Shown: piece after piece, positions 2,367 to 36,958 of the stretch
Layout of the letters: the number at the start of each line of letters is the position of its first letter
Position numbering within the stretch: position 1 is the stretch's first letter
DNA from: Lingula anatina
Lineage: Eukaryota; Animalia; Brachiopoda
Reading direction: 5' to 3'
Assembly (NCBI GenBank): GCA_051362555.1
Contig: CM120645.1
Coordinates: forward strand, 3,286,001 to 3,350,000
Length of the DNA stretch: 64,000 nt
Made by a program: the position numbers and the translations under genes
The notes under the pieces: generated by a model
The model's database searches: none
Seen by the model: only the letters and a program-made list of their open reading frames with translations
What the model was told of the DNA's origin: nothing

Positions 2367-2486
2367 TACGAACCCTCGAAACACAACTTCTCACCCTTCC
2401 TCATCCACTGGAGACGCAGGGACAGAAGAGAACCCATCAAGGACGCGACAGTTGCAGCAAGAAGCCCCGTACTTCTGAACGATACC

Positions 2487-5400: not shown

Positions 5401-5514
5401 CAGTGGCAGTATGTATTTGAGCAGTTTAATGATAAATATGTGTTCAAACCCATGATTATGCAAGAAACCCGTTCTGACGTGAAACCAACCAATATCCCCA
5501 GAAACAAAAAGTAG
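2487..5514 (+). CDS. Secreted mytilectin-type beta-trefoil lectin fused to an aerolysin-like pore-forming domain, copy 1 (exons 2487-2538 and 4667-5514; 299 aa)
   Basis: Exon 1 encodes signal peptide MHLFLAIVLSASLAVAE and ends at a G|GTAAGT donor. The TTTGCAG acceptor at 4666 is phase-compatible. Motifs WGYLK, NPFGG, ALFA, IKHSGGKYVHP, IHG and MQFDF match the MytiLec pattern. The C-terminal ~125 aa has an alternating Ser/Thr-rich amphipathic stretch (GYSKTESSTLTNSWEMTIEV..TASVTYSGSYSTS) and LWQWQY. Confidence 0.85.
2937..3482. mobile_element. Rearranged (partly inverted) copy of the solo LTR + MITE, with a 54 bp perfect inverted repeat (2937-2990 / 3238-3291)
   Basis: Direct comparison with 16939-17436. 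Confidence 0.8.
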
Positions 5515-5718
5515 AAATTGGTCCAATTACCTGTCAATCTTATTAATTTACAATATCTTTATTTCTTCTTTCTCTGCTATGCTAAATATCATGGATTGGG
5601 TTTTTGTCTCTTTTCCCCCACTATTCTGTCTATTTAATATTCAGATTTTTCTGATGACATACCTATAGAGGTATTTAGCGAACACACAAAGGCGTTTTTT
5701 TTCTGGTTGGGTTTTTGT

Positions 5719-5724
5719 AATAAA
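5719..5724 (+). other. Candidate polyadenylation signal of lectin copy 1
   Basis: First AATAAA noticed after the stop, ~205 bp downstream; also present in copy 2. Confidence 0.35.
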
Positions 5725-8332: not shown

Positions 8333-8540
8333 CTTGGATTGGCTGCCATTTTGGCAATTTAACTATGATATTTTTTCAAATAATTTCATTAATTGCTGAG
8401 GCCCAAGTCTTATTTTATAAGATTACAATACAGGTACCCGCGTTCATATATTTGAAATACATGACAATTTAAAGGTCTCAGAAATTATAATTCAAAACCC
8501 CTGTATTACTATGGCCACAGCTAAATCTGTCACACCCATA

Positions 8541-10250: not shown

Positions 10251-10470
10251 GTAATATTTTCATCTTGATGACTTCATGGTTTGGCAACAAAGCTAGAAAA
10301 CGTGTCAGTTTTGGTGTTTCAACTTCAAAGTTTTACAATTAAAGCAAAAATAACCTTTCGACTAATTATTTCCTGTGGGAGAAAAAAATCTTTTCAAGGG
10401 GTAAGCACTCTGTATACTGCTCCTAGCGCTTCCATCCTGTTGTCAGCAATACACAGAGCCAGCCGCATCT

Positions 10471-10929
10471 TTAGTCGACTTCTTCATTAATTCTTTTGTA
10501 ATCCATTCGATAAACGTAATACTCAATCTCATACATGACAACGGGCTTGATATAATGAAATGAGATGGGGTACCTGCTACAGCATTCAAAACCCTGGAAA
10601 AGATTAAGAAAAAATACAGATCAGCGGTAGTTATTGGTAATGAAGTATATTCTATACTGATGTACACGCAAGAGTGCTAAAATATCAAGGCCAAAGTTAA
10701 CATAAAGTAACAGTAGGTACTAGTAGTATGTTTTCGTCGGGATGTCTAGGTTGAACGTTTTGAATCTGCAATAATACAATTGTTCAATAAAGAAAAGTTG
10801 ACATTTGTAGTAAAATCTGTTTAACCAAATTGAACAACAGTGTAGTAAACGGGGCAATTTTACAAAAAAATAAAAATAAAATAATAAATAAATAAATAAA
10901 TAAATGAATAAATAAATAAAAAATAATAA

Positions 10930-11002
<73 letters not shown>

Positions 11003-11465
11003 TGGCGAATTTGTCTAGTTTCGTTTGTTATGCTGTTTTTAACAATACAAGGGCGGGAGGGGTGAGCTCCGAAGGGGTGGGTGTGGAGGAGGCAGTGGCC
11101 CGCTGTAAGCACCACCCCCTTAGTCTGCCTTCGTATCTTCAGGGCCCCATCTAAATAAAATATATAATCATAAAATTTAAGATCGGCTGGTGTGGACTTT
11201 ATCCTACCCACCTCCACTGCCCCATGAGCGTCCCCCTTTTTATACCAGTCAGCGTAGTGGCCCTTCAGGTGGACATAAGGAGGAAAAATCATAAACCGCT
11301 CTCTGCCCAACTCGTCCCGAGTGTCCACCGGTTCGGCACCAACACTTAACAAGCATTTCGCCGTTTTCATGTCCTCGGCTGATGTCCAGAAAACAAATGG
11401 CAGATTAAAATACTAAATCAAGTCAGAATATTTTTTGTTGATTTTAAGCCTATTGCGTGATCAGT

Positions 11466-11501
<36 letters not shown>

Positions 11502-12480
11502 GGTACCCTGGATATGCTACATGTGTAAGAACATAATGTTTATTGAGACAGAATATATGTTTGAAGCTAATAGAACGGTGCAATGTGACATCTTCTCTAC
11601 CACAATCTATCTCCTGTATTTCCAATTTGTGTGATTATGAATACAGTTGCCTATAAAGACTGCTTGGATTTTCACGTATACTTTAAGGTTATAAATGTTG
11701 TTAAAATATGCTGGGCAAATACCGTCATGCGGATTTCATTAGAAATATATATATTGACTATTGAACATTTTAACACGTGTCACGTAAACATACTGGTATG
11801 TGTCAGCTGTAACGAAAAGAGATCTGTTAGAGATATGCAACTTGAATAATAATAGGTTAAAAAGATGAAACGATATACAGGCTGTTCCTTATACAACGAC
11901 CTATTTTGAATTGAGATGGAAAGCAAAAATGGTCGTTTTTATGGACCACCCTGTACATGTATGAAATACATACCCTCTCCGTCCTGCAGGCATTTCGGGT
12001 CGCTGTTAATGGCTTTCGTAACAAGCAATCTGACAGCTTCCCTGCTAAGCACCAACCCTGGACCTCCACTCATATACACGGACTTCTTAATTCTAGTATC
12101 AGCGTTGAATTCCCAATCACTGGGGTAAAACTGGTGTCCATAAAACTCTGCCCTCTTTGGGTCCCTAGATGTTAGATAATGTTTCAAATTTTCTACAATT
12201 ACGTATGTATCAGGGTCAGCTTTGATAAAGAAATCTGCTTCGTTCAGATGATGCTCGTAAATGTATTTCCATGCAGCTTTGGCCTTTTTTGCAATGTGTC
12301 CTCTCCCGGGTGGTACACGTAAACCAATTGTTGGGAACGTCTTATTTTCCATGGAGCTCATAAATAATGTGACGTCACATCTTCTCGCCCACGTGTCTCT
12401 GACGTGAATAACACGCTTGTCGACATCTGGAGGATCAGTAAGTAGCCAACAAAGAACTCTTGGCATTGGAGGTCCTTTTT
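10471..12480 (-). CDS. C1GALT1: Core-1 beta-1,3-galactosyltransferase (T-synthase, GT31/Fringe-like) catalytic exons, copy 1: 12480-11974, 11378-11212, 10593-10471
   Basis: Motifs RVLCWLLT, TWARRCD, FIKADPDTY (DxD), YMSGGPG.VLSREA, AEDM..KCL..VG...DTRD..GRERF, and a last exon GFECCSRYPISFHY...stop that the ORF track does not show. All GT-AG sites are phase-compatible. Confidence 0.85.
10863..11001. repeat. (AAAT)n/(AAT)n microsatellite in a transferase intron
   Basis: Directly visible. Confidence 0.9.
11878..11953. mobile_element. Tiny Tc1/mariner-like MITE remnant
   Basis: TA-CAGGCTGTTCC...GGACCACCCTG-TA imperfect TIR with TA flanks. Confidence 0.45.
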
Positions 12481-13306
12481 CTGTAAGCAAAGGTGAAATA
12501 ATGTGTTTATATAGAAAAACATATCAGATAGCAAATCTGTTTTTATACTCCAAACATAAAGACGATCGAGATAGATTTGCTATGCATAAATGTAAACGTA
12601 GGACAGGGGCGGATCCAGAGAATTTTTCTGACAGTCTTCCATATTACGTTTGTTAATCCATCCTCCATTTTTGACCGTCTTCCGACAGAAAGAACAGATA
12701 CCCGACGATGTAAACTTGAAAAGCTGACCGTCTTCCGATCTCAGAAGACGGCCTGAATCAGTACCTGCCTAATAATAAGTTGTTTCGCACTCTGTCTATC
12801 CCCTTTATTTTTCTTTGGTGTTTCATTCTACCGGTAGTCTACCCCATTATGAGTACATCTCTGACTCATCATCCCAATCACCCCTTGTCTTTTTGAAATT
12901 TGTTTTTGAAAACACTTTTGATGCGGGATCCCAAAGGGAAAATGAGATGAGATTACTTCAACAGGATAATTTTATCACAGGTGCTTTTTATTTCTCTTAA
13001 AATTCAATCATTAAAATAATTACAGTAATCAAATATTTTCCCTGGGAATCGTCAATTGCGCATTTTGGTAGATAGTAAGATTTTCCATTTGGAGGGGGGG
13101 GGGAGAAAGGAAGACGACAAGATGACTAAATCTGTTTGCATAGTCATTACCTTGACTAGAAAAGTATGCTTACGTTACAGATATTTCCCTAACCAGCCGT
13201 CTCTGTAATTGCAGATTTTTATAAGTCTCAGATTTGTATCTCAAAGCCTGCCTTAATTTTGACCACATAGATGCAAGTGTTCAAAAATTGCTTTTGTTAA
13301 CGGCTC

Positions 13307-13590
13307 CCCGCACGAAAACGAAGTAGATACTCCAGCGCAGTAGACTACTTCAATCATACTGCAAACATGCTTCAAATCTGCTTCGATTGGGGAGCTAATT
13401 AGCATATTTGAAACATGCTTCTATCATGCTGCTAATCTACTGCATTAATGCTCCTCCTCTGTACAACCCTATGTAATTTTTGAAGTAGCATTGCAGTAGG
13501 CTATACTGCATTTCTACTGCAAATATGATCCACACCACTACTGCGTTAATGCTTCTTTGCTACTTCGATACTACTGCATTTTCGTGCGGG
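13307..13590. mobile_element. EnSpm/CMC-like MITE, independent insertion of the same family
   Basis: Same TIRs and 2 bp TSD TC; empty site AACGGCTCAAGCC seen at ~28739 and ~46083. Confidence 0.85.
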
Positions 13591-13929
13591 TCAAGCCAAT
13601 GTTAAGATTTTAGCAGTGCATGCATTCTCTCATTATGATGCAGGCGGAATGCGACTACCTGTACAATAAGTGGTAGATAGTCGTTGGGATCCGTTTTATT
13701 AAAATCACTGGCCGAAAAGAAAGTTAAACAGGGCAACCATATTTTTAAAAGTTATACTGGAGAAATGAATTGTAGATCTCCGCTAATAACGAACGGTACC
13801 CCCCCCCCCCCACCCCTATTTACCTTACAGATGTATCCACAGCAGCGCTTCGCGGGCGCCAACACACTTCCACACACAAACACACTCACTTTAACTGTCG
13901 CACACACTCCAACTCTCTCTAGTAACCTT

Positions 13930-13981
<52 letters not shown>

Positions 13982-14051
13982 CACTTCCTGTGTATATTCT
14001 GATTATGAAGAGAAAATATACGTTTAACATCTTTGTTACTTGTATTTTTAC

Positions 14052-14191
14052 CTGGTCTCGAGGCATGCTGGTCCGTATCTACATGTATCTCCTCACGAGA
14101 ACGAGTTAGTAGTCCTTGTATAACCAGTTGTACTGCTATGTTAGATATTACTATGGCGGGTATCACGGTGAAATAGATTTGGCTTCGCCAT
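14052..14191 (-). pseudogene. Putative first coding (signal-anchor) exon of transferase copy 1, apparently frameshifted by 2 bp just after the ATG
   Basis: Homologous to 32036-32171 but reads ATG GCG AAG instead of ATG AGG CGA AGC. The hydrophobic IYFTVIPAIVISNIAVQLVI frame has no ATG. A phase-1 donor CAG|GTAAAA is present. Confidence 0.5.
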
Positions 14192-16488
14192 GTTCAATGA
14201 AAAAATACTGTATTGGGGGTAGGTGATATGCCAAATGTTTCCCTCATGCCCCACAGGTGGTTTTCCATATGCATGTATATATTTCTGTGCACGTGTCCAT
14301 TGCCACATGACATTATTCTAGTCTCTCGTTTGACGAAGACTCTATTGCAAGTTAAATGAGGCCATTGTTCTAGCTTGTACGTACTGTACTTGTTTGAATA
14401 CCTAATGTATTCGCTAACGCCGGTGAATATGGGCAAAAATGAGGGACAAGATCTATGATAATATCCTGTAGAAAATATCTTTAACTTTGTTATGGAACTG
14501 ATATATTCTAGCTTGGACTAAAAACACTCATTGGTCCAAATGAGCTTTTTTCTTTTAGATATGCATGTTTATGTGCATTATTTGACCTAATTCTATAGGA
14601 CCTCGCATTTTGCGTGACAAATTTCATTAATGCATGTCTCGCCGAAAATAGGGGAGGCTGAGCAGCTTAGTAAATCTACGCGGAAGATCGAAGTAAGAGA
14701 TAGTCAAGGTGCTGAAAAAGAGCTATAAATATCTACTGGTACAATCACATGTACATATGGGTCTGTAATACAATCTTTATACACAAACATGTAAGTGGAG
14801 GGCATTTTTTGAGCTAAAAATAATTTATGTCACAGGCCCCCTGTGCAAGTTCGTATTGCGGAAAAAGTTTGAAGTCGGTAATCTATGGTTGGGCTTCTCT
14901 AAACTTTAAACATTGACTTATTTTTCTTGTTCATGTTCAATTAGTACAGAAGAGAACAGTTTCTCTGATCATCTGATATATCCTGCGTCGTTTTTCAAAG
15001 CAGTTTTACGAAATTATTTTTAATACGAGGTTACACGGGGAAAGTGGAAAGTAATTATTTTAATAGCAGGGAAATTTTGTCACTGGTACCTTTTATGTCG
15101 TTTGAAACACAATTTCTGGCATTAAAGCTATTAAATATTTTTTGCATGTATCGAAAACTGCTCATGGATGGTTTAGTTGTTTTCACCTAAATAAATTATC
15201 TCAATTAAATGCGTATGTGTGTGAATCTATATCTATTATATGTGTGTTTTCAAACGGGGAAAGAAGGGAGATTTGAGCCTACGTGATAATTGCGATAACC
15301 ACAGCATAATTATGCTGCATTATTTTAATCACTTGAAAGGTTTGGCCGTAAGTTTGAGTCGTGTTTGTACTGTTTGTACATTGTACTGAATTATCATGTT
15401 TTTTTTTCAATATTTAGAACGAAAAGAGAAGCCATACGTTCGAAATAACGGATCAAAATAAAGGAGTTTAGCATTCACTTTTAGTGACATAGGAACAAAA
15501 TTAGACGCTGACCAGCGATACACCTGCCTGAGAGGGCAGGGGGGGGGGGGGGGGCACGAAGTAAAATTTACGCCAGAAAGATTTCAAAGCCTTATTTAAG
15601 AACAAAAAGAAAGCACAACCAATGTTGACGCACGCACGCTGTTTATGACAGCGGGTGGGAACCAGTGCAATACGAGCTGCATTTTTCTACATTTATTTAC
15701 TTGGAGATACAGTGTTTGCCGGCAATGAAAGCGCAAGGGAATAAAACTGAGAAAAAACTCCTACTACTTCAACACGCTGGTCATACGTGAAACCTTTGTT
15801 TTAAAATCTAACTTTTTCAGAATGCACTGATGCCCCTTCTTGTTCGATAAGACAATAAGTTGGCGGCCAGTAGCAATTGGTATCGGTAAACTGGTAGAGC
15901 AGAGGCAGTTGATGTGTTCGACTGTCAAAATAAATGCTTTTGACCCAACTGAAATAAACTTTATTAAACAAACCTTCCAACAGGTGCTCATTGATTTATG
16001 AGTCTACAAAATGGGCGTTTCTGACCTATTACATGTCATCTACCTACAGTTTGTGCAGTTTCGAGGGCGCCTTTTTAATCTCCATCTCTCTCTCTTTCGG
16101 CAACTTTTCTTGCGCTACTGATTGATTCGCCAGCGATGCTTGTTCTCATGAAAGTGCCAACTATCTATTATTTAATGTTTCATCACTTTCTGGAGTCTGA
16201 AGTTACGCCAGTGAAACGTATGTCAGTTTTAAGTTGATAAAATGTCCAATAGGAACCCGTCGCGTGGTATACGTTATGATAGTGCCACCAATTATTTACC
16301 TTATATGGTAAAGATTGTGCGGGCTGACAGTCACGGCGAGGCTGGGGTGCTACGTTGATATGTATAAATACGAACCCTCGAAACACAACTTCTCACCCTT
16401 CCTCATCCACTGGAGACGCAGGGACAGAAGAGAACCCATCAAGGACGCGACAGTTGCAGCAAGAAGCCCCGTACTTCTGAACGATACC

Positions 16489-19468
16489 ATGCATTTGTTC
16501 CTGGCTATAGTGCTGTCTGCCAGCCTGGCGGTTGCCGAAGGTAAGTTCCAACATGATTCGAAGGTCGATCTTGCTCTTACCAAGGGCTTTCACGAACTCT
16601 TGACTGCATTTCAACCTCTTAGAACGCTAGACCGAACCTAGTGTAGGAACGTTTCCCGGAAACCGAGATTTAAACAGAGACCGTGACAGAGAATCAGATA
16701 GTCACCCATTGTTCTCTGGGCTTTATTCATTTCATCCGGGAAACGCGCTCCACCCCAAAGTGTGTAATGCCCTTGCTTTTAGCATCTTCAATTAAAGTTT
16801 TTGGTGAAGCTGCCCCCACCCACCCACCCACCCATAAAAAGCCTAAAAGTTGATCCTAAGACAAAATATTTAGTGCACTCCAGTTCAGGATAAAAACATA
16901 CCGGTCTATTAAAATAAATGTTTGGTACATGTACGAGGTGTGACGACGTTATTGGCTTCATGTTACGCGTGGTACCAAATACAACTCAGTTATGGACTTT
17001 CTTATTATTTATTGAACTACTTTCCAGTTGTTACATGTGCCGCTTCCTTTACCCCTACTTCTACCTCATGCAGTCTCTAGGGGCCTTCTTCTCCTGTTTA
17101 CATTATGCGTGGTTGTATAAATATCATGAGAGCATGTCATTCAACTAAAGTTACTGTACAAAACACTCCCCGATCTTAGTCACTGCATGCTGTCACTAAA
17201 GCCCCCTTTACACTGGGCGGCGTCCTTTCTGCGTCCAGCAGTCCGGCCCCATTTGAGAGTTAAAAAATTATAATATTTTACGTGCCGACAACTGGCCGAT
17301 CATTGAGCATTCATTCTGATACAAAATTAATGCTCATGCCTCCTTATTAAGACCACAGCGATGCCAAATTTCATGGTCGCAGAAAGAACGCAGAAAGAAC
17401 GCCGTCCAGTGTAAAGGGGGTATTTCTAACATTACAGAGGTATTGTTTAGTGAGGAACCACTGCCTAATCTGTTGTCCAAAATATAGCTGGATATATAGC
17501 AAATATAACAAGGATATGCCACTTTACTGATAACATACCTGACAGAGGCGCCCCTTCCAATCGCTGAGCGTCGGTGCTTCAGAGATTTTTAGTTCATCAA
17601 TATCAAAACAAAGAATTCAGTCTTAAGAGAGGGTCCGAGAACATTAATTGTCAAGTAACCGTACAGCTACAGTCTAGCACACAAGTTTATAACGAGCAAA
17701 ATATTTTCCTTTGATAACTGCAAGAAAATCAACTTCTCAGATTATGTATATTTAACCAACAAACCCGATAACCTGCCGATCACATTCTGGTATGTATATG
17801 AATAACCATTCAACGTAAAATGATACCCCTGTATGTTCAAGAACATGTACATCTGCAATGTCTGAGTCTTGAACTGAAAAATTTTGCAGATGGATTGCAC
17901 GACTAGGAAAGCTCATTGACAAATATGAAACAAAAGAAAAAGAAATAAAATTCAAAGTTCACACTCATGAATTTGATGTTCATTATCACATATTGTAATC
18001 TAATGGAAATTGTGATGGTTTAAATTCAAAGGAGGTCAGAAAGTGCAAGAAATGTGTTCTCCAATCTGTCGCATGCCTAGTTGAATAGGTCAATGATAAT
18101 ATTTAGGTATTGTTCTTGAGACCCACTATAGCAAAACACAGTCAAGTTAAAAGCTAATGTTATATTTTTTTCTTGCCACTGAAATAAGGTTACAAGGGGT
18201 TGGGAAAACACACCCTTTATTTTCTTTGCATAAAGGGGGGATTGTACTCAGCGAACTGCTTCAACTTATATAAATCGATGACGACTTTCCTTCTTAACGT
18301 CGTTTCATCGATTGATTAATCGATTTTAGGTTGATACATGTTAGTTTGGTAACCAAGCTGAAGGGTCGTTTTTGTGATCTCTTGGTTTATTAATTAGTTT
18401 TTCAGCTTATGTTTTTTCGCGATTGATCGATGATTTATTCAATCGTTTCATTTGTTGTATGGTTGACAATGTAATTAAATGATTGAATTTGCAGTTGATG
18501 GATGATTTGATTGTGAAACAGCTCGATTGAGTGGTTAATTAACCAATATGTCGAATGACTGGTTTGTATGATAGTTGGTCGTCCAATTAGTAAATGACAG
18601 ACGGTTACTTTGGTTTGCAGGAGGATACGTCAGCCCTAGGTTCATTGTTAGGCACAGGTCTAGCGGCCGTTGTTACGCCTATGCTGACTGGTGGTCCTGG
18701 GGCCATCATTATGAAAAATTCCGTGCAGACAATTGCCCCAATGCGGCTGAACTAGAATGGCATCAGAAGGAAGGACACTGGGGCTATCTGAAGGTCGTAG
18801 GCACTGCCGGACATTGTTTGAACCCCTTCGGCGGCTGGGCTCATCCAGGAGACAATACAGCAATTTTCCCACATCCAAATTGCTACAATTCTGCATTGTT
18901 TGCAATCAACCAAGAGAAGGGCTTCATCAAACATTCTGGGGGCAAATATGTTCACCCGTACCCATATAACGGTGAAATGCCAAGCTGGCATTCCGATACG
19001 ATGATACACGGAGGAACTTTCTCAAATATGCAGTTTGACTTTCTTAACCGCAACCTCCAGAAAGTTCAGGTTATTCCAAACCCATCAGTTGCCGGAGACT
19101 GGGTTAAAATCAGCTGTTGGGGCCATGTTGGCCCTGGGTCTTTGTCGTATACATTTAAAGCTGGCTACTCTAAAACCGAGTCCTCGACGTTAACAAATTC
19201 ATGGGAAATGACCATCGAAGTGGCCAAAAAAGTCATTACAGCCAGCGTCACCTATAGTGGTTCTTACTCAACCTCCTACGAATCGCAATGGACGCAGGAA
19301 CGGGAAATAACCAGAACAGTCACTGTCACTGTAGCTGGCACCATATGTTTGTGGCAGTGGCAGTATGTATTTGAGCAGTTTAATGATAAATATGTGTTCA
19401 AACCCATGATTATGCAAGAAACCCGTTCTGACGTGAAACCAACCAATATCCCCAGAAACAAAAAGTAG
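16489..19468 (+). CDS. Secreted mytilectin-type lectin / pore-forming protein, copy 2 (exons 16489-16540 and 18621-19468; 299 aa)
   Basis: Translation identical to copy 1; same splice sites. Confidence 0.85.
16939..17436. mobile_element. Solo LTR in the lectin intron with a nested MITE (~17199-17421)
   Basis: TGT...ACA termini, 4 bp TSD GAGG, empty site in type B units (~37419). Inner TIR CCCCCTTTACACTGG...CCAGTGTAAAGGGGG. Confidence 0.7.
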
Positions 19469-22492: not shown

Positions 22493-24025
22493 TAATAATA
22501 ATAATAATTATACTACAACTACTACTACTACTACTACTACTACTAATTATAATAAATTTATTTTGAGTCTAAACTCCATTATTACATGTTCAGAAGACTT
22601 TACATATACATAAACAATTACTAAATAATCATTTATTAGGAATAGATAAATAAATAAATTACAGAGTTTAACGACAAAAAATTAAGAGTGTTCACATAAA
22701 AGTACTTACAGTACATAGCTAAAATATGTTTGTGAAGAAGAAATAATCAATTCTAGGTAAAAAAAAGCCTTATTTACATATAGAAAAATTATAAGTATAA
22801 GCCTTATTTCTTACAGTGGAAAAATGCAATTACTATAACATTTGTAAAAACAATTTAAAAGTTGATTAGTCAAAAAAAATTCCTGAATAGGTATGTCGTT
22901 AATTCTTTTTTAAAATACTTGGTAGATTCAATTGATCGGATTTTCAGTGGTTATAAATTCCATTCCTTTGGACCTGCTGATTTAAAAGAAATGTCACCAT
23001 AAGTTTTTAGGCGCATTTTTACCAGCTTATATAAGTAACAATTTGTCTACAGACCGCACGTTTCTTGCTGGAACATAGTGAGTGACTAATTCACTTAGGT
23101 AGATCGGTGCGACTTTGTAAAAAGCGTCATGAACAAGACTAGAAATTTAAAACAATCCTGGCTTGCAGTCAGGTAGCCAATGTAACTCTGCTAAAACTGG
23201 GGTGATATGGTTACTCATGGATGTACGGGTTGATAATTTAGCTGAGATGTTCTGAATACGCTGCAGTATTTTAATGTTTTTTTGACACCCATATAAAATA
23301 GAATTACAGAAACCCAATCTAGACGTTACTAAACAATTTGTAACTGTACATGTAGCTGCAGCAGAGTCAGAGAGGTGATTACGAATTGTGCATATGTTCC
23401 TAATATTAAATACTGCTCACTTGCATATGCTAGCAATTTGATTATTCATAGAAAGCGTTCTATCAACCACCCTCGTAGATCATCAATACACTTAGACAGC
23501 TTTTCCATTGATTCATTAGGATTTTTTACATTACAGCATGTTAAAATTTGCGTATCATCAGCATAGATGTTATAGCCAAAACTGTGATGTCTCAATATGG
23601 CCCCAGTGGGTCATGTATAGAAAGCTAGAGGTCCAAGAACATTACCTTGAGATGCACCAAAAGCTAACTCTGACACATTTGACAATATTCCATTAATTAA
23701 AACCTGTTGTGAGCGACCTGTATGATAAGAGCGTAAAAGACTAAGTGCAGAGTCCCTGATATCAACATAATCTTGTAGTTCATGATCGATTGTATCAAAA
23801 GCTGCAGACAGGACAAATAAGACTAAAAGAATCATTGAGTGTTCATTGACTCCACACGGGAGATCACTTTTTTATTCTTAGCAGTGGTGATTCAGTACTG
23901 TGTCTGGCCTAAATGTGATAGTAATCTTGCAGCAATGACCCTTTCAACGGTTTTTGATAGAAACGAGAGGTAAAACACAGGTCTGTAATGTCTAAATGTA
24001 TCAGAGTCTAGAGATGGCTTTTTTA
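22493..24025 (-). mobile_element. Same LINE remnant, unit 2 (cut by the insertion)
   Basis: Homologous to 8541-10072. Confidence 0.85.
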
Positions 24026-24188
24026 TGCCCCTATTTCACACAGACCACGAATCCCACAAATGGCCATGACTTGACAAATTACGGCGCCAATTACAGCCGG
24101 CCCCCCAGGAGTCAACGGCAACCCCTACCACGACGAAGTCGTCAGAGCAAAAGCTTACCTGAAAGGCTGCTCTGACTGGGCAGACCAC

Positions 24189-24590
24189 ATGCTCAAACAA
24201 CTCGGCAACAACGCCCACCATGTCAGATGCCGTGTAGACTTCAGGGGATGCCCTGATGACGACATCCTTCTGGCAACAATGATCAACATACAAGACAAGG
24301 CCGCAACGGAGCTTAAATCCGCGATCGAGGCCCACACGCAATCTTTCGTAGACAAAGCTAAGGAAAGCTTGGCAAAGGCAGAAGAGAGGGAATCCAGGGC
24401 GGAAGAGCACTTCAACATCCACGGCGTGTACACGCCAGGACACCAACCCTCTACTTCAACGACCGCAAACAACCAGATCATGGAGCAAATGAGACTCCTC
24501 ATTCTCGCCATGAAGGACAAGAAGAAGAGCCGCGTGCTAGCCAGCAAAGTGAAACGAAGACTAACCTCAGTCAAGAAAACCACACTGTAA
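24189..24590 (+). CDS. Unknown helical protein with basic C-terminus (133 aa; frame open from 24075, possibly from ATG 24060 across one TGA)
   Basis: GC content clearly above the flanks with coding-like composition; coiled-coil-like stretch and a K/R-rich tail. Confidence 0.55.
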   Translation: MLKQLGNNAHHVRCRVDFRGCPDDDILLATMINIQDKAATELKSAIEAHTQSFVDKAKESLAKAEERESRAEEHFNIHGVYTPGHQPSTSTTANNQIMEQMRLLILAMKDKKKSRVLASKVKRRLTSVKKTTL

Positions 24591-24628
24591 AATAGAAGCC
24601 ATTGCTTCGACGTCCTAAAAAAAAAAAC

Positions 24629-24667
24629 GGCCCTTTTCAGGGCACCCCATTTCTACCAGGAAAAGCT
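24629..24667 (+). promoter_or_regulatory. Histone-mRNA-like 3' stem-loop plus purine-rich downstream element
   Basis: AAAC-GGCCCT-TTTC-AGGGCA-CCCC 38 nt after the ORF stop, then CAGGAAAAGCT; second copy TGCCCT-TTTC-AGGGCC at 25584-25599. Confidence 0.55.
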
Positions 24668-24713
24668 AAACCTGAATGTTCAAATAGAGCGCAATAAATC
24701 ATACCACAAATAA

Positions 24714-25698
24714 AAGGCGAGATGCCTTCCCCACATTTATTTATAATCAATAAAGCAAAGAAAAGTCATTCTGGAGATAAAGCAAAATGCCCTAATCTCA
24801 CTTAGACCAAATTTTAACACTTACAGGGCACAATCGACTTATAAGACACAAACATCGCAAATAAAAGGCGAGATGCCTTCTCACTTTATTTATAAGCAAC
24901 AAGGAAAAGGAATCCAAAATTAAAAAAGGTGCCCGAAACCTATACAGACCATCTCAGCAAATGAAAAGTCAGTGTTAACACGTATATGCACAGCATAAGA
25001 ATACTAATAAATTTGATCCGAGGTTAAAAAACCTTGCCAAAAATGAAACCAATAAACTACATCTAAACAGAAAGGATTAAGATACACCACGAGAACAGCC
25101 AATCAAAACTCATAATCTAAACAACCAATCAGATCCCGGCCTCGTTCTCGTTTTGACACAATTTCAACAAATCCTCAGTCGACCTCCGACTCTTGAGCCA
25201 TTCACACGCTCAATTCATACCGTCCACTTTGACACAAGCGAGACACTTGTGATCAAGCATGATACTATAAAGCCGAGATGGCTCGTATCATTCACAATGG
25301 CGAGACACCATTGATGAAAACTCGCTAAACGAAGCATGATACTTAAAAGCCGAGATGCCTCGTATCATTCACAATGGCGAAACACCATTGATGAAAACTT
25401 ACTAAACAAAGGCGAGACACCTTTGCTTACCAACCCCTACGTCCCTAAATTTTCTTTTTTTTTTTATTATCGGACTCTGCAGCTGATGAAGGTCACTTGT
25501 TGACCGAAAAGCGCTTTCTGCAACCAGTCCACCCTCCCCCTTCCCCCGACAGGCGAGATGCCTCTATTGTGCCAATCACGAAATGCCCTTTTCAGGGCCC
25601 CCTGTGTAGATCGGTATCTATAAATCTCATACGAAGTAGGCGAGACACCTACTCTCTTATCAAAGACATTCTTTCCCTATAATAAAGGCGAGAAGCCT
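24714..25698 (+). repeat. Array of 11 short hairpins with conserved CGAGAYR-like 7 nt loops; includes a 77 bp tandem duplication (~25256-25407)
   Basis: Stems differ in sequence but remain complementary in 10 of 11 copies. Confidence 0.75.
25478..25522 (+). ncRNA. Minimal type I hammerhead ribozyme
   Basis: Stem I TGCAG/CTGCA, core CTGATGA, stem II GGTCA-cttgt-TGACC, GAAA, palindromic stem III AAGCGCTT, predicted UUU cleavage triplet. Confidence 0.75.
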
Positions 25699-26066
25699 AA
25701 CACACTCTAAGAGTCGCTGTCATTTCTGCAAGGGGCGCTGTAAAAATACACGTCCTCAGAGGCCCAGCTCTGAATCGTGTTATTTTGGTAAAGTGGAATC
25801 TAACTAGGTCATGAGCCCACCACCCCCAACACACACGCAAGAGTGGTAAAATATCTAGGCCAAAGTTGACATAAAGTAACAGTAGGTACTAGTAGTATGT
25901 TTTCGTCGGGATGCCTAGGTTGAACGTTTTGCATCTGCAATGATACAATTGTTCAATAAAGAAAAGTTGACATTTGTAGTAAAATCTGTTTAACCAAATT
26001 GAACAACAGTGTAGTGAACGGGGCAATTTTACAAAAAAAAAAAATATAAAAAAAAAATAATAATAA

Positions 26067-26358: not shown

Positions 26359-27764
26359 CTCCACTGCCCCATGAGCGCCCCCCTTCTTATACCAGTCAGC
26401 GTAGTGGCCCTTCAGGTGGACATAAGGAGGAAAAATCATATACCGCTCTCTGCCCAACTGGTCCCGAGTGTCCATCGGTTCGGCACCAACACTTAACAAG
26501 CATTTCGCCGTTTTCATGTCCTCGGCTGATGTCCAGAAAACAAATGGCAGATTAAAATACTAAATTAAGTCAGAATATTTTTGTTGATTTTAAGCTTATT
26601 GCGTGATCAGTGGATATATATATATAGAAGGTACCCTGGATATGTTACATTGTATAAGGACATTATGTTTATTGAGACAGAATATACGTTTGAACCAAAT
26701 AGGACGGTGCAATGTGAAATCTTCTCTACCACAATCTATCTCATGTATTTCCAATTTGTGTGATTATGAATACAGTTGCCTATAAAGATTGCTTGAGTTT
26801 TCACGTGTACTATAAGGTTATAAATGTTGTTAAAATATGCTGGGCAAATACCGTCATGCGGATTTCATTAGAAATATATATGTATATTGACTATTGAACA
26901 TTTTAACACGTCATTTTAACATACTTGTATGTGTCATCTGAAACGAAAGGAGATCTGTGAGAGATATGCAACTTGAATAATAATAGGTTAAATAGATGAA
27001 ACGATATACAGGCTGTTCTTTGTACAACGACTTATATTGAATTGAGATTGAAAGTAAAAATAGTCGTTTCAATGGACCACCCTGTACACTCCCCAGGGAG
27101 GTGAGACCGTCTACAGAGTGCACCAGTGCAAAAATGACCAGGCTTCCTTGACTTGAATATTCATTTCATTTAAATAAATAATTTACATAATTGTATAACT
27201 TCAACCTTCGGGTTGTGATTTTCCAATAAAGATTATTATTATGTATGGAATACATACCCTCTCCGTCCTGCAGGCATTTCGGGTCGCTGTTAATGGCTTT
27301 CGTAACAAGCAATCTGACAGCTTCCCTGCTAGACACAAACCCTGGACCTCCACTCATATACACGGACTTCTTAATTCTAGTATCAGCGTTGAATTCCCAA
27401 TCACTGGGGTAAAACTGGTGTCCATAAAACTCTGCCCTCTTTGGGTCCCTAGATGATAGACAATGTTTCAAATTTTCTACAATTACGTATGTATCAGGGT
27501 CAGCTTTGATAAAGAAATCTGCGTCGTTCAGATGATGCTCGTAAATGTATTTCCATGCAGCTTTGGCCTTTTTTGCAATGTATCCTCTCCCGGGTGGTAC
27601 ACGTAAACCAATTGTTGGGAACGTCTTATTTTCCATGGAGCTCATAAATAATGTGACGTCACATCTTCTCGCCCACGTGTCTCTGACGTGAATAACGCGC
27701 TTGTCGAGATCTGGAGGATCAGTAAGTAGCCAACAAAGAACTGTTGGCATTGGAGGTCCTTTTT
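26359..27764 (-). pseudogene. C1GALT1: C1GALT1-like copy 2 (exons 27764-27258 and 26525-26359); terminal CCS/SFHY exon deleted
   Basis: Both exons are open with intact splice sites, but the segment equivalent to ~10073-10664 is replaced by the 24026-25830 insertion. Confidence 0.75.
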
Positions 27765-28129
27765 CTGTAAGCAAAGGTGAAATAATGTGTTTATAAAGAA
27801 AAAATATCAGATAGTAAATCTGTTTTTATATTACAAACATAAAGACGATCGAGATAGATTTGCTATGCATAAATCTAAACGTAGGACCGGGGCGGATCCA
27901 GAAAATTTTTCTGACAGTCTTTCATATTACATTTGTTGATCCATCCTCCATTTTTGACCGTCTTCCGACAGAAAGAACAGATACCCGACGATGTAAACTT
28001 GAAAAGCTGACTGTCTTCCGGAAGACTCAGAAGACGGCCTGAATCAGTACCTGTCTAATAATAAGTTGTTTCGCACTCTGTCTATCCCCTTTATTTTTTC
28101 TTTGGTGTTTCATTCTACCGGTAGTCTAC

Positions 28130-29143: not shown

Positions 29144-31953
29144 CTGTGTGCTCTTGTTCACGCATTCTAACCGAGGACACACACCCGCCCGAAACCCACT
29201 AACCGAGGACACACCTCCAACCGAGGACGTCCTCGGTTGACATAAGCAGTGGAATGCATAAAGGGGCCCATTTCAAGTTAGGTGGTGAAATTTGACGCTA
29301 TTCTGAGCCAGTCCTCGGTTATGCTGTATAGCGCGGGCCAAATTCCCGCCACGAGTGTATCAGAAATACTGTCCAACTTTTTGTCTGAAATCGAGCTATA
29401 CACACGCGTCCTCGGTTGTGCTGTAAAGGGCGGACCAAATTCCGCGTCCTCGGTTGTGCTGTAAAGGGCAGACTAAACTGAAACTAATGTTATATCTCAG
29501 ATGTCTATATATTCAGTAAGTTCATATTTTTAAACTAAAGGTCTTTTTTATCAAATTAAGCTCTCCTAGGCTTTTCATAAAACTCACAGAACTGATGATT
29601 ATAAGTAAAAGAATGGTCAAGATTGAAAATCAGCATGACCAGGCCCTTTTCTTTCAAATGTTATGCTGTTTTTTTTTTTTTTTCAGCATATAAGTAACAC
29701 TGTAAGCACATTTCAGGGAGAACCAATAAGCCTGTTTTCATGAAACTCACAGGAGTAATCAATGTTATCTATATACAAATCAAGTTTAAAAATAAGATTG
29801 ATTGGTTGAGTTTTGAGGGACTTCAGCTTTTATTTGTATATAAGTGGTTTTCCTCAGATTTGATTGTCAGGCATGTTGACAGTTTCGTTATTGAACTAAC
29901 TAGATATGTAAATATGTTAGTGTTTGTCTGAAATTTTCTGCATCTTTACAACATTGCTAGTTGATTATATAAATATGACGGTAAACATGTTATCATGTAC
30001 TGTGTAATACAGTGTCTCAAAATGGAGGAAATGGGGTGATTATTTTCAAAAGTTTTGCATTTTTTTTCTCCTTTTTTCAGTGTACATGCAACACTGTAAA
30101 CACACTTCAAGGAGAACCAATAGGCCTGTTTTCATGAAACTCAGAGAACTAATGATTATTAGTAAATTAAAAAGAATGATCAAGATTGAAAATCAGCATG
30201 ACCAGGCCCTTTTCTTTCAAATGTTATGCTGTTTTTTTTTCAGCATATATGTAACACTGTAAGCACATTTCAAGGAGAACCAATAAGCCTGTTTTCATGA
30301 AACTCACAGAACTGATGATTATTAGTAAAAGAATGGTCAAGATTGAAAATCGGCATGACCAGGCCCTTTTCTTTCAAATGTTATGCTGTTTTTTTTTAAG
30401 CATATAAGTAACACTGTAAGCACATTTCAGGAAGAACCAATAACTTAAAGCCTGTTTTCATGAAACTCACAGAACTGATTATTATGAGTAAAAGAATGGT
30501 CAAGATTGAAAATCAGCATGACCAGGCCCTTTTCTTTCAAATTTTATGCTGTTTTTTTTTTTTTAGCATATAAGTAGTTCACTGTAAGCACATTTCAGGG
30601 AGAACCGATAGGCCTGTTGTCATTAAACTCACAAGAGTGATCAATGTTATCTATATACAAATCAAATTTAAAAATAAGATTGATTGGTTGAGTTTTGAGG
30701 GACTTCAGCTTATATTTGTATATAAGTGGTTTTCCTCAGATTTGATTGTCAGGCATGTTGACAGTTTCGTTATTGAATTTACTAGATATGTAAAATGGGT
30801 TGTTTGACAATTTCTGCGTCTTGACAATATTGCTAGTTGATTATATAAAAATGGTGGTAAACCTGTTATCTTGTATTGTGTAAAAAAAGTGCCAAAATGG
30901 AAATGAACTCGTATCATTGTAGTTTGTCAGATTCAATCATTCACAATGTTCGGAATGGAGGAAATTGGACATTTAAACTTGTTATATTGATATTTTTGCC
31001 ATCTCAACAATTTTCTTAGTTGATCATGTGAAATGGCAGTAAACTGTATTATTTTATGTAAAAAAGTTAAAAATGGAAAGAAACCCATTTCAGTACAGTG
31101 CTCTCTTGTATACATTTAGCATTTTCAAAGTATGACTTTGGAGTTCCATGAACCTGAAAACCTTTGCTAGTCACATTTTCTGAATATTCATGATACTAAT
31201 ATTTTATTATAAAAAATTGATGATCATTATGCTGTTAAGCATTATATAATATTGCATCAAATTGGAAGAAAGCACAATTTTGGGTGCTGCTGGCATGATG
31301 TCCTCAATTGTAAAATTGTGTACTGTGCAAGTCTGTATCCAATGGACGACACTTTGTGTTATCAAAATATAAAATTCATGATAATAAAAGAGTGCTAAAT
31401 AGAAAATAAGCATTATGAAAATAAAATGTTTGAAAACGAATTTCTTTGGTCTTTTATTTTATTTCATCAGTATCCTTTCTTTTCCTAAATTAATTGATGT
31501 TTTATCTCATAATCTTCAATTCTAAAAAAGTGGCAAAGCCCAGCATTAAATATTGTATAACTGTTCATTTAATCATCACCTCTGGTGTTATTTTGGAATT
31601 TACCTTAAATATGAAAGAATTTCATAAAAATGTGAATTTCTGCAAAGTAACGCTATATAAAATTTGCTTTGCATTAAAAGTACAATCATTATTACATGTA
31701 GATGCATGCATGTCCTCGGTTGTAATGTGTAGTGTCTGTCCGTGTGTGTGTCCGTGTGTGTCCTCGGTTAGAATGTAAAATTCTTGTCAGCAAAAAATTA
31801 GTTTTTATAAAAAATTAATTTATAACATTCATACTCGAATAGATTTTACCCTAAATTGATGTTTTTATTTTGATTTAACCAAGGAATAAGATGTCCTCGG
31901 TTGTATGGTGTTGTGCTGATGTCCTCGGTTGGTACACATAGACAAGTACACAC
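29144..31953. mobile_element. ~2.8 kb non-autonomous DNA transposon-like insertion in a (CA)n tract, with an internal ~125 bp minisatellite
   Basis: Absent at the equivalent (CA)n at ~13945-13980; imperfect TIRs; AACCGAGGAC/GTCCTCGGTT motifs clustered at both ends; no credible ORF. Confidence 0.7.
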
Positions 31954-34900
31954 ACACACACACAGCTCTTCCTGTGTATATTTTAATTATGAAGAGAAAA
32001 TAGAGAATTAACATCTTTGTTACTTGTATTTTTACCTGGTCTCGAGGCATGCTGGTCCGTATCTATCTCCTCACGAGAACGAGTTAGTGGTCCCTGTATA
32101 ACAAGTTGTACTGCTATGTTAGATATTACTATGGCGGGTATCACGGTGAAATAAATTTGGCTTCGCCTCATGTACAATGAAAATGAAAATGCCGTATTGG
32201 GGGTAGGTTATATGCCAAATGTTTCTCTCATGCCCCACAGGTGGATTTCCATACGCTTGTATATATTTCTGTGCATGTGTCCTTTGCGACATCTCATTAT
32301 TCCAGTCTCTCGTTTGACGAAGACTGTTTTTCAAGTTAAAGGAGGCCATTGTTCTCGCTTGTACGTACTGTACTTGTATGAATACCTTATGTATTCGCTA
32401 ACGTCGGTGAATATGGACAAAATACGGGATAAGATCTATGATAATATCCTGTAGAAAATATCTTTAACTTTGTTATGGACCTGATATATTCTAGTTTGGA
32501 CTCAAAACACTCATTGGTCCAAATGAGCTTTTTTCTTGTAGATATGCATGTTTATGTACATTATTAGACCTAATTCTATAGGACCTCGCATTTTGCGTGA
32601 CAAATTTCATTGCTGCATGTCTAGCCGAAAATAGGGCAGGCTGTGCAGCTTAGTAAATCGAAGATCGAAGTAAGAGATAGTCAAGGTGCTGAAAAAGAGC
32701 GATGAATATCAACTGGTACTTCCACATGTACATATGGGTGTGTAATACAATCTTTATACACAAACATATAAGTAAAAGACATTTTTTGAGCTAAAGATAA
32801 TTTATGCCACTGGCCCCTGTGCACGTTCGTATTGCGGAAAAAAGTTTGAAGTCGGTAAGGTATGGTTGCGCTTCTCTAAACTTTAAACATTGACTTGTTT
32901 TTTCTTGTTCATGTATGTCAATAAGTAATCATTATTACATGTAAATGCATGCATGTCCTCGGTTGTAATGTGTAGTGTCTGTCCGTGTGTGTGTCCGTGT
33001 GTGTCCTCGGTTAGAATGTAAAATTCTTGTCAGCAAAAAATTAGTTTTTATAAAAAATTAATTTATAACATTCATACTCGAATAGATTTTACCCTAAATT
33101 GATGTTTTTATTTTGATTTAACCAAGGAATAAGATGTCCTCGGTTGTATGGTGTTGTGCTGATGTCCTCGGTTGGTACACATAGACAAGTACACACACAC
33201 ACACACAGCTCTTCCTGTGTATATTTTAATTATGAAGAGAAAATAGAGAATTAACATCTTTGTTACTTGTATTTTTACCTGGTCTCGAGGCATGCTGGTC
33301 CGTATCTATCTCCTCACGAGAACGAGTTAGTGGTCCCTGTATAACAAGTTGTACTGCTATGTTAGATATTACTATGGCGGGTATCACGGTGAAATAAATT
33401 TGGCTTCGCCTCATGTACAATGAAAATGAAAATGCCGTATTGGGGGTAGGTTATATGCCAAATGTTTCTCTCATGCCCCACAGGTGGATTTCCATACGCT
33501 TGTATATATTTCTGTGCATGTGTCCTTTGCGACATCTCATTATTCCAGTCTCTCGTTTGACGAAGACTGTTTTTCAAGTTAAAGGAGGCCATTGTTCTCG
33601 CTTGTACGTACTGTACTTGTATGAATACCTTATGTATTCGCTAACGTCGGTGAATATGGACAAAATACGGGATAAGATCTATGATAATATCCTGTAGAAA
33701 ATATCTTTAACTTTGTTATGGACCTGATATATTCTAGTTTGGACTCAAAACACTCATTGGTCCAAATGAGCTTTTTTCTTGTAGATATGCATGTTTATGT
33801 ACATTATTAGACCTAATTCTATAGGACCTCGCATTTTGCGTGACAAATTTCATTGCTGCATGTCTAGCCAAAAATAGGGCAGGCTGTGCAGCTTAGTAAA
33901 TCGAAGATCGAAGTAAGAGATAGTCAAGGTGCTGAAAAAGAGCGATGAATATCAACTGGTACTTCCACATGTACATATGGGTGTGTAATACAATCTTTAT
34001 ACACAAACATATAAGTAAAAGACATTTTTTGAGCTAAAGATAATTTATGCCACTGGCCCCTGTGCACGTTCGTATTGCGGAAAAAAGTTTGAAGTCGGTA
34101 AGGTATGGTTGCGCTTCTCTAAACTTTAAACATTGACTTGTTTTTTCTTGTTCATGTATGTCAATAAGTAATCATTATTACATGTAGATGCATGCATGTC
34201 CTCGGTTGTAATGTGTAGTGTCTGTCCGTGTGTGTGTCCGTGTGTGTCCTCGGTTAGAATGTAAAATTCTTGTCAGCAAAAAATTAGTTTTTATAAAAAA
34301 TTAATTTATAACATTCATACTCGAATAGATTTTACCCTAAATTGATGTTTTTATTTTGATTTAACCAAGGAATAAGATGTCCTCGGTTGTATGGTGTTGT
34401 GCTGATGTCCTCGGTTGGTACACATAGACAAGTACACACACACACACACAGCTCTTCCTGTGTATATTTTAATTATGAAGAGAAAATAGAGAATTAACAT
34501 CTTTGTTACTTGTATTTTTACCTGGTCTCGAGGCATGCTGGTCCGTATCTATCTCCTCACGAGAACGAGTTAGTGGTCCCTGTATAACAAGTTGTACTGC
34601 TATGTTAGATATTACTATGGCGGGTATCACGGTGAAATAAATTTGGCTTCGCCTCATGTACAATGAAAATGAAAATGCCGTATTGGGGGTAGGTTATATG
34701 CCAAATGTTTCTCTCATGCCCCACAGGTGGATTTCCATACGCTTGTATATATTTCTGTGCATGTGTCCTTTGCGACATCTCATTATTCCAGTCTCTCGTT
34801 TGACGAAGACTGTTTTTCAAGTTAAAGGAGGCCATTGTTCTCGCTTGTACGTACTGTACTTGTATGAATACCTTATGTATTCGCTAACGTCGGTGAATAT

Positions 34901-35412
34901 GGACAAAATACGGGATAAGATCTATGATAATATCCTGTAGAAAATATCTTTAACTTTGTTATGGACCTGATATATTCTAGTTTGGACTCAAAACACTCAT
35001 TGGTCCAAATGAGCTTTTTTCTTGTAGATATGCATGTTTATGTACATTATTAGACCTAATTCTATAGGACCTCGCATTTTGCGTGACAAATTTCATTGCT
35101 GCATGTCTAGCCAAAAATAGGGCAGGCTGTGCAGCTTAGTAAATCGAAGATCGAAGTAAGAGATAGTCAAGGTGCTGAAAAAGAGCGATGAATATCAACT
35201 GGTACTTCCACATGTACATATGGGTGTGTAATACAATCTTTATACACAAACATATAAGTAAAAGACATTTTTTGAGCTAAAGATAATTTATGCCACTGGC
35301 CCCTGTGCACGTTCGTATTGCGGAAAAAAGTTTGAAGTCGGTAAGGTATGGTTGCGCTTCTCTAAACTTTAAACATTGACTTGTTTTTTCTTGTTCATGT
35401 ATGTCAATAAGT
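31684..35412. repeat. 1243 bp tandem repeat, 3 copies
   Basis: Exact 1243 periodicity in sequence and ORF track. Confidence 0.95.
32036..32171 (-). CDS. Putative first coding exon of transferase copy 2 (type II signal anchor and stem); repeated at 33279-33414 and 34522-34657
   Basis: Encodes MRRSQ-IYFTVIPAIVISNIAVQLVI-QGPLTRSREEIDTDQHASRP, then a phase-1 donor matching the phase-1 acceptor at 27764. Confidence 0.55.
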
Positions 35413-36958
35413 ACAGAAGAGAACAGTTTCTCTGATCATCTGTAATATCCTGCGTCGTTTTTCAAAGCAGTTTTACGAAATTATTTTTAATACGAGGTTA
35501 CACGGGGAAAGTGGAAGGTAATAAATTTTAATAGCAGGGAAATTTTGTCACTGGTACCTTTTATGTCGTTTGAAACTCAATTTTTGGCATTAAAGCTATT
35601 AAATATTTTTTGCATGCATCAAAAATTGCTCATGGATGGTTTAGTTGTTTTCACTTAAATTATAATGTTTTCAAACGGGGCAAGAATTAAGGGAGATTTT
35701 AGTCTACGTGATAACGATAACCACAGCATAATTATGCTGCATATTTTTAATCGCTTGAAACGTTTGGCCGTAAGTTTAAGTCGTGTTTGTACTGTTTGTA
35801 CATTGTACTGAATAATCATGTTTTATTGTAATGTATAGAACGAAAAGAGAAGCCATACGTTCGAAATATCGGATCAAAAAAAGGAGTTAATCACTTTTAG
35901 TGACATAGGAACAAAATTAGAAGCTGACCTGGGATACACCTGCCTGAAAAGAGGGGGGGGGGGGCACGGCGATAGATAAAAGCCTGAAGTAAAATTTACG
36001 TCAGGAAGTTTTCAAAGCCTTATTTAAGAACAAAAAGAAAGGAGACCCAATGTTGACGCACGCACGCTGCTCATGACAGTGGGTGGGAAACAGTACAATA
36101 CGAGCTGCATTTTCTACATTTATTTACTTGGAAATACAGTGTTTGCCGGCAATGGAAGCACAAGGGAATAAAACTGAGAAAAAAAAAACCCTCTCCATTA
36201 CAGCTGAATCTGAATTAATTTCGACTTCAACACGCTGGTCATACGTGAAACATTTGTCTTAAACTGTATATTTTTCAAAATGTGCTGACTCTGCCCCTGG
36301 TTGTTCGATAAAACAATATGTTGGCGGCCAGCAGCAATTGGTATCGGTAAACTGGTAAATCAGTTGATATGTTCGACTGTCAAAATAAATGCTTTAGACC
36401 TCAATAAAATAGACACAACTAAAATATACTGTATTAAACAAGCCTTCCAACAGGTGCTCATTGGTTTATGGGCCTGTAAATTGAGCGTTTCTGACCTATT
36501 TCATGTCTTCAACCTACAGTTTGTGCAGTTTCGAGGGCGCCTTTTTAATCTCCATCTCTCCTTCTTTCGGCAACTTTTCTTGCGCTACTGATTGATTCGC
36601 CCGCGATGCTTGTTCTCATGAAAGTGCCAACTATCTATTATTTAATGTTTCATCACTTTCTGGAGTCTGAAGTTACGCCCGTGAAACGTATGTCAGTTTT
36701 AAGTTGATAAAATGTCCAATAGGAACCCGTCGCGTGGTACACGTTATGGTAATGCCACCAATTATTTACCTTATATGGTAAAGATTGTGCGGGCTGACAG
36801 TCACTGCGAGGCTGGGGTGCCGCGTTGATATGTATAAATACGAACCCTCAAAGCACAACTCCTCACCCTACCTCATCCATCGGAGACGCAGGGACCCAAG
36901 AGAACCCACCAAGGACGCGACAGTTGCAGCAAGAAGCCCCGTACTACTGAACGCCACT

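Follow-up and report, generated by a model that had tools for sequence, protein, structure and literature searches.

This locus raises the question of why one short insertion should carry eleven small hairpins with nearly the same loop, and what would make use of them. The window, by which is meant the whole 64,000-nucleotide stretch analyzed (1-64000), is animal-type DNA containing a tandem segmental duplication with units of 14 to 20 kb, some pairs of which are >99.7% identical; the duplication is either recent or an uncollapsed assembly. Positions 24026-25832 are occupied in one of the four segment copies of the window and missing from the three sisters. At the insertion site about 590 bp of host DNA are gone, no target duplication was seen, and ACAC is common to the 3′ joint. 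The features of the insertion are as follows.

24026..24080, + strand: end of a different, very high-copy, MITE-like repeat, 55 bp, following TA; separate from the element by its depth and unrelated flanks
24081..25832, + strand: the element, a multicopy insertion, apparently 5′-cut, likely a Penelope-like retroelement end (empty sister sites, depth profile)
24075..24590, + strand: open frame of 171 codons, first ATG at 24189 (133 aa); its first codons overlap the MITE-like piece
24629..24644, + strand: histone-type stem-loop 1, 38 nt past the stop codon (15/16 letters; Rfam Histone3, 22.8 bits)
24658-24665, + strand: purine run 13 nt downstream, candidate downstream element of stem-loop 1
24714..24728, + strand: hairpin 1, CGAGA-TG, 4-bp stem
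24865..24879, + strand: hairpin 2, duplicate of hairpin 1 via a duplication of about 151 bp
25233..25425, + strand: six closely packed hairpins (loop starts 25239, 25274, 25301, 25351, 25378, and 25413), including a 77-bp tandem duplication
25472..25530, + strand: predicted type I hammerhead motif
25551..25563, + strand: hairpin 9, CGAGA-TG, 3-bp stem
25584..25599, + strand: histone-type stem-loop 2, which follows the hammerhead by 54 nt and has no clear purine run after it
25635..25698, + strand: hairpins 10 and 11, CGAGA-CA with 6 bp and CGAGA-AG with 3 bp
25743..25787, + strand: long predicted 3′ hairpin directly before the shorter element end
25788..25832, + strand: AC-rich extension, about 45 nt long and optional, that contains an ATG at 25811

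A sequence-only reading of this DNA had described the eleven stem-loops, and all of their loops were found where it placed them on the + strand (starting at 24718, 24869, 25239, 25274, 25301, 25351, 25378, 25413, 25554, 25641, and 25689), with 10 of the 11 stems reaching at least 3 bp. The mobile insertion, with its hammerhead and two histone-type stem-loops around the array, was absent from that reading. Stems of 3 to 6 bp are Watson-Crick paired in 10/11 hairpins; the closing pair of the loop at 25351 is broken, in agreement with the single mismatch noted earlier for the copy at 25348. Each loop consists of CGARA plus two bases (11/11), the two-base tail being TG in five, CA in five, and AG in one, so that position 7 is a purine in all 11. 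CA-tailed loops have 6-bp stems in all five cases, and TG- or AG-tailed loops have stems of 3 to 4 bp. All eleven represent a single RNA motif, written GG-CGARA-N-R-CC.

Hairpin frequency was compared with that of shuffled sequence: when the insert was dinucleotide-shuffled 1,000 times, no single shuffle contained more than one such hairpin (mean, 0.025) versus 10 observed. A motif-free statistic, defined as the count of the commonest 5-mer at the start of 7-nt loops with a 3-bp closing stem on either strand, gave 9 for the insert, with maxima of 3 in shuffles and 4 among 68 other tiles of the window. The strict motif CGARA-H-R was not found on the minus strand of the insert. When flanks were swapped among the 8 nonduplicated sites, the observed pairing was reached in 4 of 40,320 permutations, and both-sided change was seen at least once in each of the six stem pairs, a value equaled in none of 500 shuffles. 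The covariation proposed in the sequence-only reading was borne out in that 6/6 stem pairs change on both sides, with two corrections: internal duplications (about 151 bp and 77 bp) account for three of the hairpins, leaving about eight that are independent, and because the two inner pairs are almost invariably G-C (9/11 and 10/11) the covariation rests on few events. Selection on a single-stranded structure, which that reading also proposed, is supported by the flank swaps, by the both-sided stem changes, and by the same hairpin grammar in phage (see below). Altogether, it is highly probable that the hairpins are a selected RNA motif.

The dense cluster at 25233..25425 gave fold z-scores of −4.8 and −3.7, and in a whole-region fold pairing probability exceeded 0.5 for only 7 of the 11 hairpins. 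In the six loops with a final G, C1-G7 pairing is possible and leaves a 5-nt loop. Cluster unit number differs among relatives, as indicated by a back-joint from 25444 to 25229 in DNA contigs and one from 25431 to 25230 in 2 RNA reads; a 95-nt back-joint from 25718 to 25624 was present in 3 RNA reads. A single loop difference, 25381 A to G, was found in DNA relatives among the 40 of 463 entries listed, and it restores the common loop form.

Depth was summed over the contigs of four sequencing runs made from DNA of this organism, a measure that is not a copy number. For the 55-bp repeat at 24026..24080 the sum was about 80,000 to 120,000 in three of the four runs; many unrelated flanks precede 24025, and a different shared continuation follows 24080. 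The joint at 24080 was crossed without differences by contigs of runs X1 and X3, which come from different studies (one perhaps the source of the assembly). This repeat end is also common in RNA reads, and the remainder of the repeat is missing at the site. In X3, X6, and X10, summed depth was 137 to 1,938 over the open reading frame (ORF), 1,111 to 15,175 over 25211-25831, and 161 to 314 just beyond; it thus climbs towards the 3′ end of the element, with a step up near 25211, and drops after 25831 (X1 was shallow). Loose contig ends lie behind 25787 and 25791 (X3 and X6), pointing to two 3′ ends about 45 nt apart, and one deep contig runs into other sequence upstream of 24084. Given this depth, the loose ends, and the upstream switch, the element is a dispersed repeat, likely 5′-truncated, with two 3′ ends; the depth profile, loose ends, and empty sites describe dispersed, 5′-truncated copies with a defined 3′ end and an optional tail. 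Only one element end is present in the copy at 24081..25832, and the check for a pseudo-LTR, as a direct or inverted repeat flanking the ORF, covered 15 of 37 joints.

Several other features of the window were recorded. Arrays of a 1,243-bp unit lie at about 31684-35413 and 49026-55241, and a 306-bp stretch is inverted between near-identical segment copies (2937-3242 versus 16940-17245). An intact 297-aa ORF without a Pfam match, which we take to resemble a lectin joined to a pore-forming-type domain, occurs at 18575-19468 and 4621-5514 (+ strand). A Fringe-like/galactosyltransferase exon is repeated at 27166-27825, 11942-12523, and 44509-45165 (− strand), the copy at 27166 matching Pfam PF02434 (E value, 8.9e−9). 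The short frame at 23611-23835 (− strand) belongs to the duplicated host segment, on the strand opposite to the insertion; it has no Pfam match and presumably resembles a decayed LINE reverse transcriptase motif.

Within the predicted hammerhead, the core (25483-25489) is followed by an extra A (25490), stem II (25491-25505), and GAAA (25506-25509); stem III (25509-25516) is palindromic and loop-less, stem I is bulged, and the predicted cut follows 25517. By this hand anatomy a hammerhead motif of the minimal type I lies near the element end, its cleavage being predicted from sequence. In the available parts of PMC4209133, hammerheads of Penelope-like elements (PLEs) are described as having one additional base inserted between 9 and 10.1, G10.1 paired with C11.1, and a stem III that is palindromic, and the minimal PLE type is said to need a dimer. 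The predicted motif shares all three traits, its additional base being unpaired and its stem III loop-less. The depth bin that holds the motif ranks first within the element in X3 and X1 and second in X6 and X10. The predicted cleavage triplet is UUU, a poor hammerhead triplet; the fold z-score is only −1.7, Rfam gave no hammerhead match to 25472-25530, and the bare core pattern occurs 10 times in the window against a chance mean of 5. A tandem repeat of about 163 bp at 29572-30901 and 46915-48243 also contains some units with a hammerhead-core-like word pair.

The hammerhead, the histone stem-loops, the ORF, and the hairpin loops are all on the + strand. No reverse transcriptase or endonuclease was found in the insert or among window ORFs of at least 170 aa, so membership among the Penelope-like elements is likely but unproven; we consider a Penelope-type element the probable identity. 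There are no telomeric repeats by the hammerhead, and the copy sits inside a duplicated gene segment. The AC-rich sequence at 25788..25832 is likely, by analogy, a Penelope-type "tail" in which a following ORF would also begin. The RNA reads of four runs (6 to 25% of each examined; two poly(A)/oligo-dT) were sparse, ran in both directions, and came mostly from relatives, with no pile-up of read starts or ends over the element in these thinly covering runs. No RNA run was listed as containing the insert among indexed sequencing runs, and a tRNA scan was empty.

Both histone-type stem-loops match 15/16 letters of a human histone stem-loop listed in PMC7807067, and nowhere else in the 64 kb of the window is the pattern matched (chance mean, 0.00). 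Each is without one outer pair, and the loose end of a relative has the completed stem for copy 1. As far as the replication-dependent histone 3′ stem-loop is set out in the accessible text on it (RF00032; PMC7807067), the likeness extends to the place after a stop codon and to the downstream purine run of copy 1. It differs in that the ORF here is nonhistone and lies in a mobile element, one outer pair is missing, and the Rfam Histone3 (RF00032) score of stem-loop 1, 22.8 bits, is under the gathering score of 34. Stem-loop 1 could end the ORF message without poly(A). Histone-type stem-loops on a nonhistone mobile ORF would widen a pathway thought to serve histone messages.

These stem-loops and the step in depth near 25211 bear on an alternative in which a captured host gene with a histone-type end lies before a Penelope terminal repeat, and the hairpins are an old motif multiplied neutrally, with tails decaying from CG to TG or CA. 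Penelope elements can carry host genes, according to the accessible portion of PMC3846280, and the tails are TG in five loops, CA in five, and AG in one. Internal duplications are frequent in the element (77 and 95 nt, and approximately 151 and 216 nt), for which reason neutral multiplication was retained for consideration. However, stems vary on both sides while loops stay fixed, and hairpins as well as histone-type stem-loops lie both before and after the step in depth. The initial CG is also intact in 11/11 loops, a relaxed search for decayed copies found none that was convincing, and CpG observed/expected is 0.86 in the hairpin-bearing part; CpG decay as the sole cause of the TG and CA tails is not supported. 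This alternative is considered unlikely.

The frame at 24075..24590 is predicted to be all-helical with a basic tail (model mean pLDDT, 58) and likely lacks its true start. The "adjacent basic protein" of the sequence-only reading is basic overall (pI 9.28), but the basicity is confined to the last 31 residues, residues 1 to 140 having a pI of 6.05. A search with the 171-aa frame and its alignment identified one relative, P0001 (E value, 3.9e−6; 28 to 29% identity); the 133-aa ORF had no match in a protein search, and no longer relative was found, which is weak evidence. The ORF had no Pfam or PHROGs family and no Atlas match, its low-confidence model had no fold match in the PDB or viral structures, and no viral locus was found. 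Among diverged contig pieces, 5 of 7 were gap-free over the ORF versus 1 of 14 over noncoding sequence (Fisher p, 0.006), counts taken from the best 32 of 2,093 pieces with near-identical and mixed pieces left out. Six synonymous changes among 16 listed substitutions, each judged singly, are too few and too selected for use. By the gap counts, the ORF looks to be under constraint. Nothing ties the ORF protein directly to the hairpins.

Twin hairpins of the same form were then sought in viral contigs, where 121 loci were identified. Raw counts of the twin pattern (about 140) are no evidence, because two control patterns were equally frequent (150 and 150). The ATG in the second hairpin opened an ORF of at least 100 aa in 27 of 80 flanked loci, with a Shine-Dalgarno-like word just upstream in 22, and among the 24 distinct proteins from such ORFs, 11 had head-scaffolding PHROGs matches and 7 more were assigned by profile (probability, 94.6). 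The twin hairpins surround the Shine-Dalgarno sequence and the start codon (Met-Pro), for example in L016:1501-1535, L017:1501-1534, L047:1501-1540, and L379-L462. An arrangement of two hairpins across a ribosome-binding site is that of an operator to which a protein binds, as is established for several phage genes. By its sequence and position, the twin hairpin of phages is a candidate translational operator of scaffolding genes.

A scan in which the upstream loop was left open gave 70 distinct matches, from related phages and so not independent, and 41 of the 70 had N-G-N-N-A in that loop. In these 41 loops, position 1 is C in 35, U in 5, and A in 1; position 3 is A in 34; position 4 is G and position 7 a purine in all 41; position 6 is free; and the third pair is formed in 39. 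The fixed and free positions argue for a selected sense-strand RNA motif. In phage, the upstream hairpin may derive by duplication from its downstream partner. When T was set at position 3 of the downstream loop, the scan gave 10/39; this is not a true negative control, because T there is an allowed variant. Rfam had no match at the phage hairpins in the 40 loci scanned (twenty plus twenty); the twin hairpin is therefore a candidate regulatory RNA without an Rfam match, whose 41 natural variants expose the loop rules.

Homology between the window ORF and the phage scaffold proteins was rejected (probability, 0.2), and because the two are unrelated the likeness to phage is one of analogy, confined to a motif of 11 nt, and not a sign of descent. 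ATGs in the hairpin loops of the window open only 16 to 27 codons, so the start-codon role seen in phage does not carry over. A hammerhead plus hairpin pattern had 2 chance-like matches in viral contigs, and a hairpin plus histone stem-loop pattern had 12 in metagenomes, none with a nearby hammerhead core or array. One animal-type contig (L012:3001-3946) carries an inverted-repeat element in which a single weak CGAGA-CA hairpin is followed, 33 nt later, by a complete histone stem-loop.

The strand of the hairpins is relevant to a further alternative, that they act as DNA, either as single-stranded cDNA hairpins during copying or as imperfect inverted repeats in double-stranded DNA bound by a mobility protein. 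Minus-strand folds are equally or more stable, and since nearest-neighbor energies favor that strand for 10 of the 11 hairpins, a DNA-level function was kept under consideration; related repeats, presumably REP-like, were also present among the phage-contig matches. Against this, the hammerhead and histone stem-loop make sense only as + strand RNA, all 11 hairpins point the same way, and the phage twins lie on the sense strand over a ribosome-binding site. A role as DNA appears very unlikely.

The loops resemble T-loops. Within the parts of 10.1101/2022.12.26.521914 available to us, the riboswitch T-loop consensus is YGNRA, with CGNRA making up 10.9% of FMN loops, and T-loops have two strand-biased closing G-C pairs in the corresponding parts of PMC2258182. 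YGNRA plus 2 nt fits 11/11 loops, and GG/CC closing pairs are present in 8/11. The T-loops of FMN and cobalamin riboswitches, as presented there, are thus alike in the 7-nt loop, CGNRA, and the two closing G-C pairs; they have a pyrimidine at position 7, whereas the array here has a purine, stands as eleven free-standing copies, and has no receptor identified. The hairpin may adopt a T-loop-like fold, with a reverse Hoogsteen pair between positions 1 and 5, judging from this analogy. Its invariant purine at position 7 suits a GNRA loop that carries one bulged base and is closed by pairing of Y1 with R7. Because position 6 is free in phage (10/41 purines), a strict AGA-triloop reading was rejected.

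This resemblance leads to an alternative for the same element, in which the hairpins, as T-loop- or GNRA-like modules, would find RNA partners in one another, in an internal-loop receptor, or in another transcript; the RNA would be compacted and two dimer-type hammerheads joined without a specific protein. The fit of all 11 loops to YGNRA plus 2 nt, the CGNRA share of FMN T-loops, the strand-biased closing pairs in 8/11, the U found first in 5 of 41 phage loops, and the dimer requirement given for this hammerhead type in the portion of PMC4209133 seen are all consistent with it, and CGAGA also fits the receptor consensus YNANA in the available text of 10.1101/2022.12.26.521914. By the receptor rules in that text, purines at position 7 are not tolerated with a 5-nt receptor and U is preferred with an internal-loop receptor, yet position 7 is a purine in 11/11 loops here and 41/41 in phage; CGNRA loops there prefer a pyrimidine at receptor position 2, which is G here. 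Variable spacing and copy number also suit independent sites over one fixed fold. Docking of RNA on RNA is the main rival reading, possible but on balance doubtful.

The sequence-only reading had suggested two roles, binding or packaging sites for a protein and GNRA-like tertiary contacts. The reading preferred here is that the main role of the hairpins is to serve as repeated protein docking sites, likely for the element's own protein, to which a probability of about one-half is given. The variable number and spacing of the hairpins fit independent sites. The element RNA would fold the hairpins, and a helical, dimer-forming protein would bind several at once and pack the RNA; the binder could be the ORF product or an N-terminal helical region of a parent reverse transcriptase. 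Bound protein could help the dimer-type hammerhead to fold. The packaged transcript would then enter target-primed copying, which would begin at the AC-rich 3′ end and insert 5′-truncated copies. In the accessible sections of PMC11167929, a long helix at the N terminus of the Poseidon protein is predicted to dimerize, the hammerhead cleaves only with protein, and copying starts at two sites, the commoner of them in an AC-rich stem-loop, giving an optional 30- to 40-bp tail.

A broader proposal, offered as a speculation with the odds against it, is that a PLE lineage assembles its RNA from borrowed parts, namely histone stem-loops, which would allow processing without poly(A), and an array of an uncatalogued hairpin, GG-YGNRA-N-R-CC, read by a helical dimeric protein; phages would use the same hairpin, paired, as a translational operator of scaffolding genes, and animals and phages would thus share a recurring RNA motif on which proteins dock. 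The array bears on how PLE RNA is chosen and packaged and on what the hammerhead does, both questions of PMC11167929 and PMC8557442. Eleven copies of one defined hairpin beside a small helical protein lend themselves to a direct binding test.

Compared with known systems, the element is closest in description to Penelope-like elements, which, in the accessible parts of PMC4209133, PMC11167929, and PMC3846280, are alike in hammerhead traits, 3′-biased truncated copies, an optional tail, an AC-rich 3′ end, insertion without target duplication, and a helical coding region. Unlike the elements described there, the one here has no reverse transcriptase or GIY-YIG domain between the ORF and the terminal repeat, its ORF has its own stop, and it also carries the pair of histone-type stem-loops and the 11-hairpin array, of which those parts make no mention. 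Non-LTR retrozymes, as far as given in the portions seen of PMC7229834 and 10.64898/2026.07.22.740005, are alike in being nonautonomous with a type I hammerhead, are described as PLE derived, and occur in invertebrates; they are noncoding tandem units of about 170 to 400 nt with a hammerhead each, in contrast to the 1.75 kb, single hammerhead, and constrained ORF here. Identity with retrozymes was rejected, since the tandem units seen exclude the hammerhead and the ORF is constrained. Terminons/Athena, in the available text of the review PMC6431247, share coiled-coil accessory ORFs co-oriented with hammerhead-bearing ends and 5′ truncation; they attach to telomeres via telomeric repeats by the hammerhead, whereas this copy is internal, in a duplicated gene segment without such repeats, and this identity was likewise set aside. 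In the literature searched, Penelope-like elements and hammerheads were not linked to histone stem-loops or T-loops by any paper, and a supplement file of PMC8557442, the part of that paper searched, held no copy of the full motifs. Hammerhead-bearing Penelope ends are already well known; the RNA anatomy of this one is unusual.
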